Assembly (NCBI RefSeq): GCF_053078305.1
Contig: NZ_CP166879.1
Direction: 5' to 3' (one strand)
Length of the DNA stretch: 64,000 bases
The translations under genes and the position numbers were made by a program. How positions within the stretch are numbered: the stretch's first letter is position 1; each line of letters begins with the position of its first letter. Positions 41,864 to 55,207 of this stretch are shown here, piece after piece. Below the pieces are notes generated by a model. It saw only the letters and a program-made list of their open reading frames with translations. It was not told where the DNA came from and searched no databases.

Positions 41864-43214
41864 AAACCGTGCTCCGCGTCATTCGGAAAATGCCATATAG
41901 TACCAGGGCGATAACCGGCACCAGACCAATGGCGATGATATTGCCGTTGAAGATTTCCAGCAGCCAGAAGCGGAACGGGTTACCGCCATCAAGGAAACTG
42001 GAAACCTGGCCGCTGGATCCTTCGGCAAATTTGAAGTTAACGTCTTTCGCCATGCCGGTAATAAACGGTGCGATTTTAGTCGCAATCCACAGGTCGGCAA
42101 TAATCACCGGGATCGCCGCCAGAACGGTGCGGAAAATATTGCCACGGCTGGCTAAAGCAATCATCGACGCCATTACCGCCAGGTTGGCAAGGTCGCCAAG
42201 CGGCAGGACTTCATTACTTGGGAGGGCAAACGCGATAAAGACCGAGATTGGCGTTAGCAGCAGGGCGGTGGAGATAATCGCCGGATTACCTACGGCAACG
42301 GCGATATCCAGTCCGATATAGAGATCGTCACGGTCAGGGTATTTGGCATTGAGATACTTTTTAATGGCTTCAGACAGCGGTAATAAACCTTCCATCAGGA
42401 TGCGTACCATGCGTGGCAGGATGAACATCACACCGCCAATGCTGATGCCAAGCAGCAACACTTTTTTGAAATCGTATCCTGCAATCACGCCGAGCAGTAT
42501 GCCCAGAATAGTGCCAACCATCATCGGTTCGCCGAAGATGCCAAACTTTTTCTGTACGGTTTCCGGGTCGATATGAATACGATTGAGGCCGGGGATATGG
42601 TCGATGATTTTGTCGACCAGCAGACCGACCGGGAAGAACACCACCGAAGAGAGCGTCGGCAATGAGATCCCTTCCAGTCCAAAGTATTTTTGTACCAGTG
42701 GCGCAGACCAGTCGGCGAGTTTAAGTACTACCACCGCAGCAATCGCCGCCGCCAGCAAACCAAAGAACAGGCTGCCGGTGCTGTAATAAACCAACGTACC
42801 AGCAAGGGCAAAATGCCAGTAGTTCCACATATCTACGTCAACGGTGCGGGTTTTATTTAACGCCAGCATCGCCACGTTAATCAGAATGGTCAGGGGAATA
42901 ACAAACGGGGCAATTGGCGAACCCCATGTAATAGCGGAAAGCGGCGGCCAGCCTAAATCTACCACCGGTAAATTAATTCCGGTGCGTTCAACCATCGCCT
43001 GGGCCGCTGGCCCGACATTGCTGGTCAGAATATCGAAAATGGCATAAATACCGACAAAACCAATGCCGACTGTTAATGACGAACGTAAGGCTTTAGCGGG
43101 TTTTACTTTAAAACAGAGAGCAAGAATAAATAACACCAACGGCAACATTACCGTCGGGCCAAATCCCAATATATATTGCACAATATTATAGAGGGTATGC
43201 GCGATATCGTTCAT
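41856..43214 (-). CDS. PTS EIIC component, galactitol family (GatC-like)
   Basis: Start trimmed to MNDIAHTLYNIV... (452 aa) preceded by AAGAGG RBS; polytopic membrane protein matching the GatC family. Confidence 0.8.
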   Translation of the reverse strand: MNDIAHTLYNIVQYILGFGPTVMLPLVLFILALCFKVKPAKALRSSLTVGIGFVGIYAIFDILTSNVGPAAQAMVERTGINLPVVDLGWPPLSAITWGSPIAPFVIPLTILINVAMLALNKTRTVDVDMWNYWHFALAGTLVYYSTGSLFFGLLAAAIAAVVVLKLADWSAPLVQKYFGLEGISLPTLSSVVFFPVGLLVDKIIDHIPGLNRIHIDPETVQKKFGIFGEPMMVGTILGILLGVIAGYDFKKVLLLGISIGGVMFILPRMVRILMEGLLPLSEAIKKYLNAKYPDRDDLYIGLDIAVAVGNPAIISTALLLTPISVFIAFALPSNEVLPLGDLANLAVMASMIALASRGNIFRTVLAAIPVIIADLWIATKIAPFITGMAKDVNFKFAEGSSGQVSSFLDGGNPFRFWLLEIFNGNIIAIGLVPVIALVLYGIFRMTRSTVYA

Positions 43215-43290
43215 AATAAACCTCTTTTTCAGGCGAGAGCGCACCTCGCGTTAGCGCCTGATGGAGTGGGTTGAAATTAATTATTATTAA

Positions 43291-43572
43291 TTACTTTTTA
43301 AGGATCGAAACAATTTGCGCCAGTACTTTCTCTTCGCCAATACCGGTAATAATAGGCAAGCCGTTAACCACCGGGACGTCGAGTTCATAAGGCACTTTAG
43401 TCGTTGAGACTACCAGTGCTACGCCGTCAGTATTTCCAGGTAAAGAGGCAACGTTGGTTTGGGAATAATTGACGTTAAGACCTTGCTCTTTGCAATATTC
43501 CATGACTTTTTCTGTTACCGCCGTGGATGTGGCAATACCCGTGGCGCAGACAAATAAAATGGTTTGACTCAT
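43291..43572 (-). CDS. PTS EIIB component, galactitol family (GatB-like)
   Basis: 93 aa; phosphorylatable Cys in ILFVCATGIATS. Confidence 0.8.
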   Translation of the reverse strand: MSQTILFVCATGIATSTAVTEKVMEYCKEQGLNVNYSQTNVASLPGNTDGVALVVSTTKVPYELDVPVVNGLPIITGIGEEKVLAQIVSILKK

Positions 43573-44042
43573 ATTTCACCTCGTTCTTTCATTTTGTTTA
43601 AGATTACTGTGTGTATTTCTGTTGTTTCCATCGTAAGCAGGGCTTGCATAAAGGGCGTATCCTGAATCATTTCCATAATCCAGCCCAGGGCATTTAATTG
43701 TTTGTTACTTTCGCTTAAGGCGAGCAAAAAAATCACCCTGACAGGTACGGGGTCAGGATCGCCGCCCATATCGGCAAACTCTACCGGTTCCGGCAGGATG
43801 CCGACGGCAATTGCATTGTGCCTGACATGTTTATGGTCCGTGTGTGGAATAGCGACGCACGGTGGTTCGGTAGGCAGCCCCGTTGGGTACGTCGCCTCAC
43901 GTTTCAGTACGTGATCGGCAAAGTCAGGGACCACCAGCTCGGCGGCAACCAACGGTTGCGCTAACTGACGGATGATCTGTTCAACGCTTAACCCTGCCGG
44001 AAGTCGTTGAATATAATTTTCCTGAAACTGTATGCCTTGCAT
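43569..44042 (-). CDS. PTS EIIA component (GatA/fructose-type EIIA fold)
   Basis: 157 aa; VAIPHTDHKHV His motif. Confidence 0.75.
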   Translation of the reverse strand: MQGIQFQENYIQRLPAGLSVEQIIRQLAQPLVAAELVVPDFADHVLKREATYPTGLPTEPPCVAIPHTDHKHVRHNAIAVGILPEPVEFADMGGDPDPVPVRVIFLLALSESNKQLNALGWIMEMIQDTPFMQALLTMETTEIHTVILNKMKERGEI

Positions 44043-44066
44043 TTTATTCCTCTTAAAAAAGTGTAC

Positions 44067-44813
44067 TTAACTCACTTCCCGCCGTTGCAGCACGGTGCCA
44101 AGATAATATTTATTTCCTTTTAACCAGACGTTGCCAAACTCAACGGGTAATCCTCGGGAGAAAAAGACTAACTGCTCCAGATGCAAAACGGGTGCATCTT
44201 CACTGATATCTAAAAAATGACCGCGTTCATTACCAATTAATCGCGCGGCATAGCGACTTTCCGAGTAACGAATTTTTCTTTGCGACAAACTTTCTATTGT
44301 TGGAAATAAATTGTGTTGATTAAAATCGATTTCCGCGATGCCGGGGCATAGCTCAATATTGATACGGTTCTCTATCAGCATCGCTTTTTCATCACCAATC
44401 GAACGTAAACGTTCAAGGTAAAGAATATCCTGACCGGGCGTTATTCTTAATTTCTCTGCTACATAACGATTAGCCGGTTCAATCCGTGACGTAATAACTT
44501 CAGTGGTAAAATGTATTTTCTGGCTTTCCAGCGATTCCGCGAATGACAATAATCCTTCACCTAACGGATAGGCCACGTTCTCTTTTTTGACAAATGTTCC
44601 CTTGCCCTGGACCTGAATCAACACGCCTTCTTTTACCAGTTGGGCGACCGCTTTTTTAACGGTTCCCCGACTGACTTCCAGCATATCCATAATCTGGTAT
44701 TCCGAAGGGATGCGATCGTCTTCCACCAGATCTCCGGTATAAATACTTTCTCTTATCCACTCCACCACTTGTTGATAGAGCGGTATTTGTGACGACTTAC
44801 TTAATGATTTCAT
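44067..44813 (-). CDS. GntR/HutC-family transcriptional regulator (UTRA effector domain)
   Basis: Start trimmed to the ATG at 44813 (MKSLSKSS...); N-terminal winged HTH, C-terminal UTRA-like domain. Confidence 0.8.
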   Translation of the reverse strand: MKSLSKSSQIPLYQQVVEWIRESIYTGDLVEDDRIPSEYQIMDMLEVSRGTVKKAVAQLVKEGVLIQVQGKGTFVKKENVAYPLGEGLLSFAESLESQKIHFTTEVITSRIEPANRYVAEKLRITPGQDILYLERLRSIGDEKAMLIENRINIELCPGIAEIDFNQHNLFPTIESLSQRKIRYSESRYAARLIGNERGHFLDISEDAPVLHLEQLVFFSRGLPVEFGNVWLKGNKYYLGTVLQRREVS

Positions 44814-45011: not shown

Positions 45012-47815
<2,804 letters not shown>

Positions 47816-47819
<4 letters not shown>

Positions 47820-48760
47820 GCGTGCGCTCCTTCATGACGACGAATGCGCGGGTCCAGCGCGGCGTTGAGCAAATCGACAATCAAATTACAGACCACAAAA
47901 ACCACCACCATCATCAGCGTAAAGCACTGGATCACCGGATAGTCACGGTTAAAAATCGCCGACACCGCATAGCGCCCGACGCCAGGCCAGGCAAAGATGT
48001 TTTCGATAATCATCGTCCCGCCAATCAGTTCGCCAATGTGCATCCCCACGGCGGTGATCATCGGCAGCGAGGCATTGCGCAGGATGTGGCGACGTTCGGT
48101 CTGTTTGTCGTTCAGGCCGCGCAGACGCGCCCAGGTGACGTGACGCTGACCGGCGACGTCCAGCATACTGGCGCGCAGCAGCCGTGCGTTAATCGCCAGC
48201 GACATAAAGGCAATGGAAACCGCAGGCAAAATGATGTGCTGCCAGCCGCCGTAGCCCATCGCGGGTAGCCATTGCAGATACACCGAAAACGCCATCACCA
48301 GTAAAAATGCCAGCCAGAAGTTAGGCATCGACACGCCAAGAAACGCGATGAAACGTACGGCGAAATCCGGCAGACGGTCACGATGGCGCGCCGCCCAGAT
48401 ACCGAGCGGTACGGAAGTGAGCAGAATTAATACCAGCGCCGCACCTGCAAGTTCCAGCGTGGCGGGCAGGAAGTTCAGCATATCGTCCAGCACCGGGCGT
48501 TGGCTGGCGAATGAGATACCAAAGTCAAGATGCAGCGCCTTCCACAACCAGGTACCGTACTGGACGTACAGCGGCTGATCCAGTCCGAGCATGGTGCGGG
48601 TAGAGGCCAGCATCTCCGGCGTCGGCGGCAGGTTAGATAAACGCAGATAATCGAGCGCCGGGTCGCCGGTACCGAGGCGCAGCATCAGAAAAATGATCAC
48701 CGAGGCGGCGAGCACCATCGGGATCAGCAGCAGAAAGCGGCGTAATACGTAACGCAACAT
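47816..48760 (-). CDS. nikB: Nickel ABC transporter permease NikB
   Basis: 314 aa membrane protein in operon position. Confidence 0.9.
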
Positions 48761-50334
48761 TAAGGTTTCACCGGTTTAATCTGTTCGAACGGAATTTCGG
48801 TGGCGATCGGCGCGTAGGGGATGTTACCCAGCTCCGGTTTTGATACCACCATCATTGAGATGTAACTGATAGGCAGATAAACCGCCTCGTCATGCAGACG
48901 GGTCAGAATGTCGCGATACAGCGCCTGACGTTGCGTTTCGTCATGGGTCGCCAGCACTTCGCCGATCTCTTTATCAATCAGCGGTTTGTCGGCTAATCCT
49001 TGCTGTGCCTGGAAGTCAGCGTGTGACGGTACGCGCATTGAACTGAGGAAGGCGTGTGGATCGTATGGCGCGCCCCAGGTGCGGTGGAAAATCATGCCAA
49101 AACGACCGTCGCGCTGACGAGCATAGATACTGCTCTCTTCTTCGCCAATCAGCGAGACATCTGCGCCAATCTGGCGCATATCAGCCTGAATGATTTCCGC
49201 CATCGATTTGCTTAACGCATCGGTGCCGATGAACGACAGTTCAATGCGCAGCGGCTGACCATTTTTCTCGCGGATGTCTTTGCCCGCCGGCAGCGTCCAA
49301 CCGGCTTTTTCCAGCAACGCTTTCGCTTTCTGCGGATCGTACTGGCGCGGTTTCAGGCCGAGGTTGGCGTAGGGCACAGAAGGGGCAAACAGGGTGTCGG
49401 CGACCTGCTGGGTGCCATACAACGCGTTATCAATCAGCGATTTTTTGTTTACCGCGTAATTAAGAGCTTCACGTACTGCCAGCTCATTGGTGGGGGCTTT
49501 GGCGGTATTAAGCGCCAGCATCACGGTTTCGATCGGCTGTGACAGTTGGGTATGGTAAGCCGGGTTCTGGCTAAAGCGGGCGAAGGTATCGAGCGGTAAT
49601 AACCCTTCGTTTCCGTACAGCAGGTCGATATCGCCAGTTTCAAACGCTACCGCGCGGGTCGTCGGGTCCGGGATGACGTTAAAAGTGATCTTCTTAATCG
49701 CCGGCTTTTCGCCCCAGTAGTTTTCGTTACGGACGAAGACATCGTACTGATTCAGTTTCGATTCCTGCAAAACCCACGGCCCGGTGCCAATCGGCGCTTT
49801 AATCCCGTTCATGGTTTCATGGTTTTTAAACTGCGAGGGGGCGATAAAGCGGAAAGGGCGCGGCAGGGCCAGTTCTTGCAGGAAAGGATAGTAGGCGCTT
49901 TTCAGGGTGATTTGCAGCTCTGTTTTACTGAGTGCTTTGACATCAACAATCTGGTTTGCCAGCTCCAGCCAGGCGTGACGTTGACGGTTATCGAGCACTG
50001 CGCGGAAGTTTTCTGCCGCTGCCTCTGCATCAAACGGTTCGCCGTTGGAGAATTTCACGTCATCACGCAGGGTGAAGGTCCAGGTTTTACCATCTTCTGA
50101 ATGAGTCCAGCTTTTTGCCAGCCACGGGATCACCGAACCGTCTGCCTGATATTTCACCAATGGTTCATAAACCATGCTCTGGGCGAACATCTGGTTAGGC
50201 GTGTAAAGGTGCGGGTTTAGTGGCCCGACATTCACCGGCCAGGCGGTGGTGATTTCATCTGGTGCAGCGGCATGGACGATAAAAGACGCACAAGCCAGCA
50301 GCGCAAATAGAGTGCGGCGGAGTGTGGAGAGCAT
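48760..50334 (-). CDS. nikA: Periplasmic nickel-binding protein NikA
   Basis: 524 aa with signal peptide; family 5 solute-binding protein; first gene of nik operon. Confidence 0.9.
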
Positions 50335-50371
50335 GGTAACCCCAATGGATTAAAATAGATGGCGGAAATAA

Positions 50372-50399
50372 GTATGACGATTTTAAGTATTCGTCATAC
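50372..50399. promoter_or_regulatory. NikR operator (GTATGA-N16-TCATAC) in the nikA promoter
   Basis: Exact dyad GTATGAcgattttaagtattcgTCATAC 38-65 bp upstream of the nikA start codon; matches the established NikR operator consensus. Confidence 0.7.
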
Positions 50400-50444
50400 T
50401 GATTACCTGTTCTGGATCAATAGATGGGCAGTCGGGTGGGCGGA

Positions 50445-51032
50445 TCAGTTAACTGAATCGATCCATTGCACACTGTCGGCGGTGAGCGTAAAGGGGGTGG
50501 GGGTGCAGATCGCAAGGCTTAAATTTTCTAGCTGACAATGGCTGACTGACAGCGAGGAGTGATAGGTGCTATCTACGCTGACGATTTGCCAGGCGCTGCC
50601 GCCACGCTGTTTAACGATGGCTTCTTTGCGCGTCCAGATGCGCCAGAACATTTCCAGTTGCTGATCAGGATGCACGGCGTCCATCTCAGCGTGTTCCCCG
50701 AGGCTGAATACGGCGTTCGCCAGCCAGCGCCAGTTGGCGCGCGGGCGAATCACTTCGATATCGCAGCCGACTTCGCCTTCATCACTCAACAGCAGAGCGA
50801 TATCGTCACCGCTATGGCTTAAGTTGAACCATAGCGGCGTTTCCGGCGCGAATGCAGGTTTGCCTTGTTCGCCATAGATGATCTCCGGTAGCGGGGAAAG
50901 CGTGTGCGAAAGCAATGCACGCCCCGCCAGCCAGCGTTCGCGTCGTGGACCTTGCGGTGCTTGCTCGCGTAAACCCGGTGGCAGTGGAGCTGCGCTTAAG
51001 GTCGAAACTTTCCCCAGAACTATCCGATACAT
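50445..51032 (-). CDS. acpT: 4'-phosphopantetheinyl transferase AcpT
   Basis: Start trimmed to MYRIVLGKV... (195 aa); PPTase motifs (FNLSHSGD, WTRKEA..K). Confidence 0.85.
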   Translation of the reverse strand: MYRIVLGKVSTLSAAPLPPGLREQAPQGPRRERWLAGRALLSHTLSPLPEIIYGEQGKPAFAPETPLWFNLSHSGDDIALLLSDEGEVGCDIEVIRPRANWRWLANAVFSLGEHAEMDAVHPDQQLEMFWRIWTRKEAIVKQRGGSAWQIVSVDSTYHSSLSVSHCQLENLSLAICTPTPFTLTADSVQWIDSVN

Positions 51033-51033
51033 A

Positions 51034-52263
51034 TCAGGGCCAACGTTTAATGATGATGGATGTATTAATGCCGCCAAAGGCAAAGTTGTTACTCTGCAAA
51101 AACTCACAATCAACCTTGCGGGCTTCATGCATGATGTAATCCAGCGCGCCACAGTTCGGGTCTGGTTTATTCAGGTTTAGCGTAGGCGCAAACCAACCTT
51201 CGCGCATCATTTGCAGACTCATCCAGGCTTCGAGCGCGCCACAGGCACCAAGCGTATGACCAAAATAACTTTTCAGCGAGGAGAGCGGCACATTATCACC
51301 GTAAATGGTTGCTGTCGCCAGACTTTCTGCCATATCACCGCGATCGGTCGCCGTACCATGCGCTGAAATATAGCCGATATCTTGTGCGCTTAACCCGGCG
51401 ATTTTCAGCGATTGCTCCATACAATACTGCATGGTTTCGCGCTGCGGCTGGGTAATATGTGCCGCGTCGCAGTTCGTCGCAAAGCCGACGATTTCACCGT
51501 AAATGGTCGCGCCGCGCGCTTTGGCGTGCTCCAGTTCTTCGAGAATGAGCGTACCTGCGCCTTCACCAATCACCAGCCCGTCGCGGTTTTCATCGAACGG
51601 TGAAGGTGTGGTTTTCGGCGCATCATTGTGCTGGCTGGTGGCGAAAAGCGTATCAAATACCGCTGCTTCTGAAGGACATAACTCTTCGGCACCACCAGCA
51701 ACCATCACCGTTTGATAACCGTGGCGAATGGCTTCCCACGCATAACCGATTGCCTGGCTGCCGGAAGTACAGGCGCTGGAGGTTGGGATCACCCGCCCGC
51801 GCAGGCCGAAAAAGAGGCCAGTATTAACGGCGGTGGTGTGCGGCATCATCTGCACATAGGTGGTGCCAGTGATGTTATTGGTGTGCTTTTCCGTCAGCAT
51901 GGTGGCGAACTCGCTTACCGGGCCGGTACTGCCGGTCGATGAACCGTACGCAATGCCCGTTTCGCCGCTGGTTAATATCGGATCGCCAATCAACCCTGCC
52001 TGCTCTAACGCCAGCTCGCTGGCACGGGTCGACATTTGCGACACGCGGCCCATCGCACGGATACGCTTGCGGGTGTAGTGCTCCGGTAGCGTGAAATCAT
52101 CAACAGGCGCGCCAAGCAGGGTGTGCAGCCCGTCGTAGACCTGCCACTCCGGCATTTTGCGCACCGCATTTTCATACGCCAGTAAGCGTGCAGAAACGTC
52201 CTGCCAGTTTTCACCAAAGGCAGTCACGCCACCCATTCCTGTAATCACTACGCGACGTGTCAT
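51034..52263 (-). CDS. Beta-ketoacyl-ACP synthase (KAS I/II-like; ApeR-position)
   Basis: 409 aa; active-site Cys in PTSSACTSGS, His motifs HGTAT and GHTLGA. Confidence 0.8.
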   Translation of the reverse strand: MTRRVVITGMGGVTAFGENWQDVSARLLAYENAVRKMPEWQVYDGLHTLLGAPVDDFTLPEHYTRKRIRAMGRVSQMSTRASELALEQAGLIGDPILTSGETGIAYGSSTGSTGPVSEFATMLTEKHTNNITGTTYVQMMPHTTAVNTGLFFGLRGRVIPTSSACTSGSQAIGYAWEAIRHGYQTVMVAGGAEELCPSEAAVFDTLFATSQHNDAPKTTPSPFDENRDGLVIGEGAGTLILEELEHAKARGATIYGEIVGFATNCDAAHITQPQRETMQYCMEQSLKIAGLSAQDIGYISAHGTATDRGDMAESLATATIYGDNVPLSSLKSYFGHTLGACGALEAWMSLQMMREGWFAPTLNLNKPDPNCGALDYIMHEARKVDCEFLQSNNFAFGGINTSIIIKRWP

Positions 52264-52991
52264 AACATCCCTCCGTTGATGGAAATAACCTGGCGGGTGA
52301 CGTAACCCGCAATATCAGACATTAAATAACTGGCAAGCCCGGCAACTTCTTCCGCCTGGCCCATACGTTTCATGGGGATCATCGACATTGCCTCTTTCAG
52401 AGCGCTCTCTTCCATTTCGATCATCCCGGTATCAATAAGCCCTGGCGCGATGCAATTGACGGTGATTTTGCGCTTTGCGAGTTCGATAGCCAGCGCTTTT
52501 GTTGCGCCGATAATTCCGGCTTTGGCAGCGCTGTAATTCACCTGGCCGCGATTGCCCATTACGCCGGAAACCGAGGACAGCGTGATGATGCGCCCACCCT
52601 GGCGCGCGCCGATCATTGGCATAATGCACGGCTGAATGACGTTGTAGAAACTGTCGAGATTGGTGTGGATCACCGCATCCCAGTCGTCATCGCTTAAAGC
52701 CGGAAAAGCGGCATCGCGGGCGATCCCGGCGTTACTGACCACGCCGTACCAGGCACCGTGTTGCGCGATCTCATGCTCCAGCACTTCCCGACACTGTTCG
52801 CGGTTTGCGACGTCGAAACTGAGCAAACGCCCGTTACCCCCGTTGGCGACAATGGCATTCAGCGTTTCCTGAGCGCCTGTGGCGTCACGGTGATAGTGAA
52901 CGCCAATGTTAAAGCCGTCTGCCGCCAGTTGGCAGGCGATGGCGCGACCAATGCCTTTGCTGGCACCAGTAACCAGAACTGAACGACTCAT
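52260..52991 (-). CDS. 3-oxoacyl-ACP reductase (FabG-like SDR; ApeQ-position)
   Basis: 243 aa; TGASKGIG cofactor motif, YSAAK catalytic motif. Confidence 0.8.
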   Translation of the reverse strand: MSRSVLVTGASKGIGRAIACQLAADGFNIGVHYHRDATGAQETLNAIVANGGNGRLLSFDVANREQCREVLEHEIAQHGAWYGVVSNAGIARDAAFPALSDDDWDAVIHTNLDSFYNVIQPCIMPMIGARQGGRIITLSSVSGVMGNRGQVNYSAAKAGIIGATKALAIELAKRKITVNCIAPGLIDTGMIEMEESALKEAMSMIPMKRMGQAEEVAGLASYLMSDIAGYVTRQVISINGGML

Positions 52992-53455
52992 CAGGACGCT
53001 CCTTGTTGAAACAGGGTGGTAAGTTCTTCCGCGGTCGGCTGGAAGGTGTTAATGCGGCCCGTCGCCTCGCCGTCGTTGATGCTGCACTCAAAACTGCCGA
53101 AGCGATCGTCCTGCATCAGCAGTTTGACGGTAATGGTCAGCGTCTGGCCTGCGGGCAGAATGCCAGCGGCGCAAAGCAATTCACGCGCGCCCAGTATCAT
53201 CCCTAACTCAATACTGTTTTTGCCCTGCTGGTGGCGATGCCAGCCAGACCAGACGCCGACGGTTTGCGCCATCAGTTCAAGGGCAAACCAGCCAGGGAGA
53301 TTGCCGTCCGGGTCGAGAAACGGTGCCAGTACGCCACTGGGCGAAACCGTCACGCGGCACACCGCGCTGTCATCGCTGACGCTCACCACGTCTTCCAGCA
53401 GTAACATGGGCGCGTCGTGGGGCAGATAAGCGCCGGGGGATAAATAGTGGCTCAC
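52991..53455 (-). CDS. Hotdog-fold 3-hydroxyacyl-ACP dehydratase (ApeP-position)
   Basis: 154 aa; cluster context between reductase and synthase genes. Confidence 0.55.
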   Translation of the reverse strand: MSHYLSPGAYLPHDAPMLLLEDVVSVSDDSAVCRVTVSPSGVLAPFLDPDGNLPGWFALELMAQTVGVWSGWHRHQQGKNSIELGMILGARELLCAAGILPAGQTLTITVKLLMQDDRFGSFECSINDGEATGRINTFQPTAEELTTLFQQGAS

Positions 53456-54630
53456 GAAACCCTCCCGAGCAGAATGCTGGCGTTATTGCCGCCAAAGGCG
53501 AAGGAATTGGACAGGATCACCGGACGTGCCAGCGGCTGCGGTTTTTCGATAATGCCACACGGTGGCAGCGTGGGATCGCGCGGCGACAGGCTGAAGTCCT
53601 GAGCGGGCAGCGGTAAATCACGCTGTAAAATCAACATACTAATTGCCGCCTCGGTAATGCCCGCTGCGCCCAGCGTGTGTCCGGTCAAATGTTTGGTGGA
53701 GCTGCACGGTACGCGTTCGCCAAACAGGGCGTTAACCACCATTGATTCAATCTGGTCGTTGAGCTGTGTGGCGGTGCCGTGCAGGTTGATATAGCCGACG
53801 TCATCCGGCGTAAGCTGCGCATCGGTCAGCGCCTGATTAATAGCGCGGATCGCTCCTTCGCCCTGCGGATGCGGGGCTGAAATATGGTAAGCGTCGCTCG
53901 ATTCACCAACGCCCAGCAACGCGATGGGCTGCGGTTCCCGGGTCAGCAGCATTAGCCCCGCCCCTTCACCAATGGTGATACCTGCGCGGTCACGACCAAA
54001 CGGCTGACATAAGGTTGGCGACAGCGATTCGAGGCTGTGAAAACCGTTAATCGGCATCCGGCTCAGGGTGTCTGCACCACCCACAATGGCGGCATCGACC
54101 AGCCCCGCTTCGATAAGCCTGCGCCCGCTGATTATCGCTCTGGCGCTGGAAGAGCAGGCGGTTGAAAGGGTATAGGCCGGGCCGTCGAGCGCCAGCCAGT
54201 GGCTGAGAAAACGCGACGGATCGCCGAGTTCCTGTTGCGCGTAGTGCCATGTGGTGCTCGGCTGCCCGTGGGTGCGTAGGTTAACGTGCGTGTCGCCTTC
54301 ATGCAGGCCGGAGGTGCTGGTGCCAAGTACAATCGCGATGCGCTCGCGACCATATTTCGCTATAGCGTCATCAACCTGCGGCTGGAGCTGCGCCAGCGCC
54401 GCCAGCAGGATCTGATTGTTGCGCGAGCGATGCGCAGCGAATTTTTCCGGGATAAGCGGAAGCTCGCCATCCACGCCAGCCAGGACCGCCTGCGGATGCC
54501 CCTGCAACCAGCCTGCGCGTGGGCGCATTCCGGGGGCGACACCGCGAGCTAGGTTGGCTGCGATTTCGTCAAGGTTATTTCCCAGGGCGTTGATCATGCC
54601 GACGGCGGAAATATAAATCATATCAGTCAC
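53452..54630 (-). CDS. Beta-ketoacyl-ACP synthase (ApeO-position)
   Basis: 392 aa; active-site Cys in STACSSSA, HGTAT and GHTLGAAG motifs. Confidence 0.75.
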   Translation of the reverse strand: MTDMIYISAVGMINALGNNLDEIAANLARGVAPGMRPRAGWLQGHPQAVLAGVDGELPLIPEKFAAHRSRNNQILLAALAQLQPQVDDAIAKYGRERIAIVLGTSTSGLHEGDTHVNLRTHGQPSTTWHYAQQELGDPSRFLSHWLALDGPAYTLSTACSSSARAIISGRRLIEAGLVDAAIVGGADTLSRMPINGFHSLESLSPTLCQPFGRDRAGITIGEGAGLMLLTREPQPIALLGVGESSDAYHISAPHPQGEGAIRAINQALTDAQLTPDDVGYINLHGTATQLNDQIESMVVNALFGERVPCSSTKHLTGHTLGAAGITEAAISMLILQRDLPLPAQDFSLSPRDPTLPPCGIIEKPQPLARPVILSNSFAFGGNNASILLGRVS

Positions 54631-55207
54631 CTAAGTATTGAATGGTGATGTGGTATTTAAAGACATGCTGCTCAATGCTGATTGGCACGCGTTTTCCCTG
54701 GCGATTCAGATAGGTGATTTCCGTGACCAGTTTGCCGCTGGCGTTACGCAGTTCGCGTTTGTCACCGTTGTCGCGAAGTGTCCAGCCAGCGGGAAGTTGC
54801 GGTTGCCAGGCGCTAATCGGCCAGTGGCTGAGCATTACGTCAGCCAGAACCTGACTTGCGGGCGGCAACTGTGGGACGACGATGGATTGCTCGGCGCGTA
54901 GCCCTTTTGCATCGTAGGTCACCAGAAACAGGCGAATGCCGACCGACGACAGCCCGGCAAGGGTGATTTTCTGGTCGTCGGCGTTAAGCATCACTAACAG
55001 CGACTGGGTTTTGCCGTTGAAGCTGCCGGTCAACAGTTGCTGGGAATTGACGGCGGGTGAAATCCCTGGTGCCGGCAGCGTGATGCGCGTGCCAGGTTGC
55101 AGCCACGCCTGCGGGCGGCCTTCCTGTTCCGGTTGCGAGTGGCTACAGCCGGTGAGGATAAGCGTAGCGGTCAGGGCGAGCGCTCGCCAGAAGGTAGGTT
55201 TGATCAT
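54623..55207 (-). CDS. Lipoprotein (LolA/DUF3261-like; ApeN-position)
   Basis: 194 aa; signal peptide with lipobox LTGCS. Confidence 0.5.
   Translation of the reverse strand: MIKPTFWRALALTATLILTGCSHSQPEQEGRPQAWLQPGTRITLPAPGISPAVNSQQLLTGSFNGKTQSLLVMLNADDQKITLAGLSSVGIRLFLVTYDAKGLRAEQSIVVPQLPPASQVLADVMLSHWPISAWQPQLPAGWTLRDNGDKRELRNASGKLVTEITYLNRQGKRVPISIEQHVFKYHITIQYLGD

Follow-up and report, generated by a model that had tools for sequence, protein, structure and literature searches.

The E. coli nikABCDE(-nikR) promoter, which occupies the region described here, is very probably a class II FNR-dependent sigma70 promoter that is shut off by Ni(II)-NikR. All positions below refer to the window, that is, the whole stretch of DNA that was analysed (64 kb), unless another record is named. 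Positions 50335..50444 of the window are exactly the 110-bp acpT–nikA intergenic region. Both flanking genes lie on the minus strand, and the gap is bordered upstream by the acpT stop codon (50445..50447) and downstream by the nikA ATG at 50334. The upstream ORF was identified as AcpT by an NCBIfam profile match. The first gene of the operon and the gene for its repressor are as follows.

48760..50334, minus strand: nikA, first gene of the nikABCDE-nikR operon (NCBIfam equivalog TIGR02294, 840 bits)
45012..45413, minus strand: nikR, gene for the cognate repressor, distal in the nikABCDE-nikR operon (NCBIfam NikR equivalogs)

The nikR product gave a full-length match to the NikR sequence of PDB entries 1q5v, 2hza, 2hzv, and 3od2. 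In a RefSeq genome that is identical over the region, acpT, nikA, nikB, nikC, nikD, nikE, and nikR are annotated on the minus strand with coordinates equal to those of the window ORFs. A 501-bp query around the site was matched by 5,425 of 5,426 complete E. coli genomes. The 110 intergenic bases were at least 99% identical in 5,198 of the same 5,426 genomes, and 100% identical in K-12 MG1655 and O157:H7 EDL933. Because of this high identity, which includes 100% identity to K-12 MG1655, the published K-12 maps are valid here base for base. The locus is the well-studied E. coli nickel-uptake promoter, and its biology is already known textbook biology; it had been recorded in advance as expected biology and as a positive control, and as such it stands, the 110 bp being identical to those of K-12. 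The sequences of the sites, their uniqueness, their register, and their conservation were determined in this analysis. Occupancy by FNR, dependence on FNR and on nickel, and the consensus of the operator were taken from the literature, namely reviews and Myers 2013.

The regulatory region does not differ from the K-12 nikABCDE promoter PnikA (same 110 bp, same dyad, same nikR), and only the wider context does: a fatty-acid/aryl-polyene-like cluster lies upstream of acpT here but not in K-12. This cluster, which extends over at least 13 kb upstream of acpT (51034..64000), contains genes for ketoacyl-ACP synthases, FabG2, dehydratases, an MMPL transporter, a LolA-like protein, a glycosyltransferase, an AMP-binding enzyme, and two acyl carrier proteins, and thereby resembles an island of the fatty-acid/aryl-polyene type, of which AcpT is presumably the cognate phosphopantetheinyl transferase. 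No terminator-like hairpin was seen (50400..50650) that would separate the nikA promoter from the stop codon of acpT (50445), so that there is no obvious barrier to read-through into nik from acpT and the upstream cluster. The accessory content of positions 1272..10223, 38523..39154, and 39204..44813 (a chu/shu heme-uptake island, a hicAB toxin-antitoxin pair, and a PTS/aldolase/kinase island, the last with a GntR regulator and directly downstream of nikR) marks a non-K-12 lineage. A 58-aa ORF on the plus strand (50359..50535), which overlaps the promoter and the 3' end of acpT, was treated as spurious.

The elements assigned within the intergenic region, in the order in which they occur on the nikA sense strand, are as follows.

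50407..50420, minus strand: FNR site TTGATCCAGAACAG, centre 50413.5 = -40.5; class II activator site (Myers 2013)
50400..50406, minus strand: GTAATCA, 7-bp gap that separates the operator from the FNR site; length fixed across species, sequence weakly conserved
50372..50399, minus strand: NikR operator, 28-bp dyad GTATGA-N16-TCATAC, exact consensus match; spans -26..+2 as counted from the putative +1
50385..50380, minus strand: putative -10 hexamer TAAAAT, -12..-7, placed from the -40.5 position of the FNR site; inside the operator spacer
50373, minus strand: putative nikA transcription start +1, A, placed from the FNR centre + 40.5; 3,613,628 in K-12 NC_000913.3, 39 nt before the ATG
50335..50372, minus strand: nikA 5' untranslated leader, +2..+39, with a Shine-Dalgarno-like GGGG at 50343..50340

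The operator sequence, GTATGACGATTTTAAGTATTCGTCATAC, lies 37 nt upstream of the nikA ATG (3,613,602..3,613,629 in K-12 NC_000913.3) and matches GTATGA-N16-TCATAC exactly; it is symmetric over 11 bp in each arm (GTATGAYGAAT / AATCRTCATAC). This was the sole exact match in 64 kb. The pattern occurred in 0 of 100 dinucleotide-preserving shuffles (about 0.004 expected per window), and a search of the 64-kb window with up to 2 mismatches gave only one extra match, at 38661, which corresponds to chance level. A co-crystal of NikR with its operator (PDB 2HZV) was reportedly described by Schreiter in 2006. The published consensus of the E. coli NikR operator is GTATGA-N16-TCATAC (review PMC7055735, citing Chivers & Sauer 2000; also PMC4486848), and Ni-NikR binds the operator with nanomolar affinity, the ribbon-helix-helix domains being placed in the major groove of each half-site (PMC7055735, PMC4486848). 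The original prediction had read the region as the nikA promoter with a textbook NikR operator and had described the dyad at 50372..50399 as an exact match. Both statements were confirmed: the gene downstream is nikA by TIGR02294, and the dyad, unique in the window, is the consensus given in PMC7055735. The dyad is thus the published E. coli NikR operator, for which Ni(II)-dependent binding and repression are known from the literature.

The FNR site TTGATCCAGAACAG is the reverse complement of 50407..50420 and is read on the nikA sense strand. Of the 10 positions that TTGAT-N4-ATCAA specifies, it agrees at 8: its left half is a perfect TTGAT, and its right half, AACAG, agrees with ATCAA at 3 of 5. 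The proposal of a half-site pair with a degenerate second half therefore holds, although the evidence for it is positional and experimental. As for its location, the sequence had been given correctly, but the coordinates had been set at 50409..50422, which is off by 2 nt from the true 50407..50420; the reverse complement of 50409..50422 reads TATTGATCCAGAAC. FNR-like sites as good as TTGATCCAGAACAG are frequent in the window (54 vs 33.3 expected), and the FNR site is therefore neither significant nor callable from sequence alone. Its support comes from position, conservation, and published ChIP and expression data, not from the sequence match.

The nikABCDE operon belongs to category 1 of Myers 2013 (PMC3688515), that is, direct activation by FNR, and has one FNR motif, centred at -40.5 (Table 1/Table S5 of the same paper); the site that had been put forward as a possible FNR site is this motif. 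The FNR ChIP-seq peak at nikABCDE has its summit at 3,611,605, the peak being found by all four peak callers, and a ChIP-chip peak is also present (Myers 2013, PMC3688515). Both sigma70 occupancy and expression of nikABCDE are higher without oxygen, and the expression ratio of the fnr mutant to the wild type is 0.03 for nikA (33-fold down), 0.03-0.06 for nikA-E, and 0.35 for nikR (Myers 2013, PMC3688515). The nikA motif has a PatSer PWM ln(p) of -9.55, worse than the threshold of -10.75 used for genome-wide prediction, and nikA is missing from the table of predicted FNR sites (Myers 2013, PMC3688515). The site is bound and functional, yet it is unpredictable by motif match, and the value of -9.55 agrees with the chance-level count obtained here. 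In NC_000913.3, the nikA ATG is at 3,613,667, and the centre of the 14-mer, at 3,613,587.5, lies 79.5 nt upstream of it. For conversion between U00096.2 and NC_000913.3 we took the offset to be 1,977 bp, which we assume from the record lengths. With this offset, the centre of the 14-mer corresponds to approximately 3,611,610.5 in the coordinates of Myers 2013, 5.5 bp from the ChIP summit. TTGATCCAGAACAG is the functional FNR site of nikA, its occupancy and the FNR dependence of the operon being those of Myers 2013.

The start of transcription was placed at 50373 because the FNR centre, 50413.5, is at -40.5. Note that the start sites in Myers 2013 were drawn from EcoCyc or Kim 2012 (PMC3688515), and that the +1 of nikA is thus from a secondary source; the nikA transcription start was not found in the supplements of Kim 2012. 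We infer the exact +1 and the exact -10 on this basis. The anaerobic sigma70 ChIP-seq peak lies at 3,611,651 of U00096.2 (Myers 2013, PMC3688515). The FNR centre precedes the TAnAAT that is invariant across species (see below) by 28.5 nt, as counted to the first base of this hexamer. When converted with the assumed 1,977-bp offset, the sigma70 peak maps to 50373, the putative +1 itself. If +1 and -10 are placed in this way, the -10 hexamer falls entirely within the operator spacer, and the start site within the promoter-proximal half-site. The -35 region, AGGTAA (-35..-30), which lies within the 7-bp gap and the right half of the FNR site, matches TTGACA at only 2 of 6 positions. A generic scan of 50200..50650 found no sigma70 promoter and no terminator. 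The two-hexamer promoter scan was empty because the -35 is poor; this is expected for an activator-dependent class II promoter and is no independent support for it. Downstream of the start, the leader is T-rich and moderately conserved at +3..+8, and its remaining part is unconserved.

For the analysis of conservation, one genome per species was scanned with NikA, which gave 80 loci, and the upstream regions were anchored without gaps on the best dyad. The footprint set consisted of 69 distinct nikA upstream sequences of Enterobacterales, and per-position conservation was calculated from a 67-sequence set. The NikR dyad was perfect in 49 of the 69 sequences and had at most 1 mismatch in 68; TAnAAT was present at the same register in all 69; and a perfect TTGAT was present in 67, always 7 bp upstream of the dyad. 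The match of the -35 to TTGACA did not exceed 3 of 6 positions in any of the 69 sequences. TTGATCC was nearly invariant (1.4-2.0 bits per position). The right FNR half-site had 2-3 mismatches in 59 of 69 sequences, and in the 67-sequence set only C(-36) (75%) and A(-35) (100%), which are the C and A of the consensus TCAA, were held. In the operator, the half-sites were conserved and the central spacer bases at -15..-13 were variable; the sequences upstream of -48 and downstream of +9 were unconserved. Among the Escherichia variants, every intergenic SNP was located outside the FNR 14-mer and the NikR 28-mer. The footprint thus gives a compact picture of the promoter, in which an activator half-site, a 7-bp gap, an operator arm, a -10 in the spacer, and a second arm at +1 follow one another in a fixed register. 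Outside Enterobacterales, the nikA loci of Consotaella, Rhizobium, Fulvimarina, and Halomonas (L069, L071, L072, L075, and L077) retain the dyad (0-1 mismatch); no TTGAT was found 7 bp upstream of it in these alphaproteobacterial and Halomonas nikA loci.

The 27-28-bp inverted repeat GTATGAT-N13/14-ATCATAC has been reported upstream of nik transporter genes as the NikR signal of enterobacteria by comparative genomics (cited in Rodionov et al. 2004, PMC545781), and the extended arms of this signal were reproduced by our 69-sequence footprint. At the seventh arm position, where the reported signal has T/A, E. coli has C/G (GTATGAC...GTCATAC; 50379 and 50393 in the window, positions -6/-5 and -20). 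In most Enterobacterales, the base at -20 is T (52 of 67), and the base at -5 is A or G.

Two Escherichia loci carry insertions in the nikA leader. In Escherichia sp. MOD1-EC7003 (L006:1303-1500), the FNR box and the dyad are intact, but the nikA 5' leader has gained approximately 112 bp directly behind the operator, so that the distance from the dyad to the ATG is increased from 37 to 149 nt. The inserted sequence is similar to an ERIC/IRU repeat and contains AAGTAAGTGACTGAGGTG, which we take to be the ERIC2 primer sequence. The locus of Escherichia sp. E1V33 (L005:981-1500) at first seemed to be without the operator; a wider scan showed an intact promoter that an insertion has moved away from the gene, with TTGATCC at 981, the dyad at 1002-1029, and then approximately 440 bp before nikA. 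In its leader, an 81-bp unit that includes GC-rich REP-like palindromes occurs in tandem in 3.1 copies (1143-1394), and a partial second copy of the right end of the operator, AATCGTCGCCATACTTATTTCGCC, adjoins the nikA ribosome-binding site. Neither leader insertion had a match in Rfam. These two loci suggest that the leader just after the operator is a hot spot for insertions.

Class II FNR-activated promoters, which include those of dmsA, narG, nirB, yfiD, and pykA, have the FNR box TTGAT-N4-ATCAA near -41.5. The centre of the nikA FNR site, at -40.5, is within the 4 nt of -41.5 by which class II is defined, and is the same as in ynfE, pykA, focA, and yfiD (Myers 2013 Table 1). Like the class II FNR promoters, nikA combines a poor -35 with a strong anaerobic gain in sigma70 occupancy and expression. 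It differs from nirB, which has the perfect TTGATTTACATCAA, in that the downstream FNR half-site of E. coli nikA is degenerate (AACAG), and from the class II set in that its FNR PWM score falls short of the prediction threshold.

Two other readings of these elements were weighed. TTGATC might be the -35 hexamer of an ordinary sigma70 promoter, paired with TATGAC (-25..-20) over a 16-bp spacer, the anaerobic control then being indirect. TTGATC agrees with TTGACA, and TATGAC with TATAAT, at 4 of 6 positions each, and TTGATCCAGAACAG is not significant as an FNR match, all of which would suit this reading. However, TATGAC is without the near-essential final T, the promoter scan reported none, and conservation covers TTGATCC and not a TTGACA pattern, with the invariant TAnAAT located 12 bp further downstream. 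The FNR ChIP-seq peak lies on the site, expression falls 33-fold in the fnr mutant, and the sigma70 peak maps to 50373 and not to approximately 50386. On the ChIP and expression data, the position of the sigma70 peak, and the pattern of conservation, TTGATC was rejected as a -35 hexamer, and we consider a promoter of this type very improbable. It is still harder to believe, and in our judgement nearly inconceivable, that the dyad arose as a palindrome by chance, or has a structural role, for instance as a leader hairpin, in place of being a protein operator. Cruciform or hairpin formation is open to any 28-bp dyad, but only the last 2 nt of this one would be transcribed from +1, the rest being upstream and so not in the RNA. 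A chance origin is opposed by the result of the shuffles (0 of 100, with about 0.004 expected per window), and both versions are opposed by the identity of the dyad to the published operator consensus and by its occurrence with nikA in alphaproteobacteria and Halomonas as well. Conserved half-sites around variable bases at -15..-13 are the pattern of a protein operator with two half-sites and not of a stem, and what is conserved is the sequence of the half-sites rather than their pairing. The dyad is accordingly read below as the NikR operator, and TTGATC as part of the FNR site.

There might also be a site for a third regulator, through which NarL would repress nikA in response to nitrate. 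Two heptamers of the NarL type came into consideration by sequence match.

50374..50368, minus strand: candidate NarL-type heptamer TACTTAT, perfect match to TACYYMT, -1..+6
50404..50410, plus strand: candidate NarL-type heptamer TACCTGT, 6/7 match, -31..-37

In this reading, NarL would act via TACTTAT, which overlaps the start, possibly together with TACCTGT on the other strand. For nikA, repression by nitrate through NarL is cited (Rowe 2005) in PMC2718512, where no binding site is identified. A perfect TACYYMT is rare (25 in 128 kb of both strands), so that 0.04 would be expected in the gap, and the perfect heptamer at -1 is kept in 22 of 69 species. Against this, the heptamer is not kept in the other 47 of 69; it owes its first three bases to the NikR half-site TCATAC, which brings the effective chance to approximately 1 in 32 per TAC; no 7-2-7 arrangement is present; TACCTGT matches at only 6 of 7 positions and is not conserved; and the nitrate effect could be indirect. 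NarL control through these heptamers is unlikely on this balance. The heptamers make a plausible third input, but they are too weakly conserved for such an input to be claimed. We rate as rather improbable a proposal in two separate parts: NarL could act through TACTTAT (-1..+6), whose first three bases are shared with the promoter-proximal NikR half-site, and the degenerate right FNR half-site could be selected so as to keep FNR activation weak enough for NikR to override it. If NarL did act there, repression by nickel and by nitrate would meet in the same few base pairs around the start.

The analysis has value as a calibration: reading of the raw sequence recovered the established operator exactly, and a sequence-weak activator site within 2 nt. 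The limit of such reading is also apparent, since the NikR dyad is statistically self-evident, while the FNR site is indistinguishable from approximately 50 chance look-alikes in the window without position, conservation, or ChIP data.

With the class II FNR-dependent promoter under NikR control as the preferred reading, the operon would be regulated as follows. Without oxygen, dimeric [4Fe-4S]-FNR binds TTGATCCAGAACAG, centred at -40.5; it would thereby compensate for the very poor -35 and recruit RNA polymerase to the good -10, TAAAAT, and the first base transcribed would be the A at 50373, 39 nt upstream of the nikA start codon. Once the cytoplasm contains sufficient nickel, the NikR tetramer places two ribbon-helix-helix domains on the half-sites GTATGA and TCATAC (-26..+2). 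Because the -10 and the start site are between or under the half-sites, bound NikR would probably exclude RNA polymerase, so that repression would be by occlusion. Nickel feedback through the operon-encoded NikR would in this way dominate over anaerobic activation by FNR. Since the alphaproteobacterial and Halomonas loci keep the dyad, the NikR operator travels widely with nikA, and the FNR input appears, as judged from the aligned upstream sequences, to be restricted to Enterobacterales.
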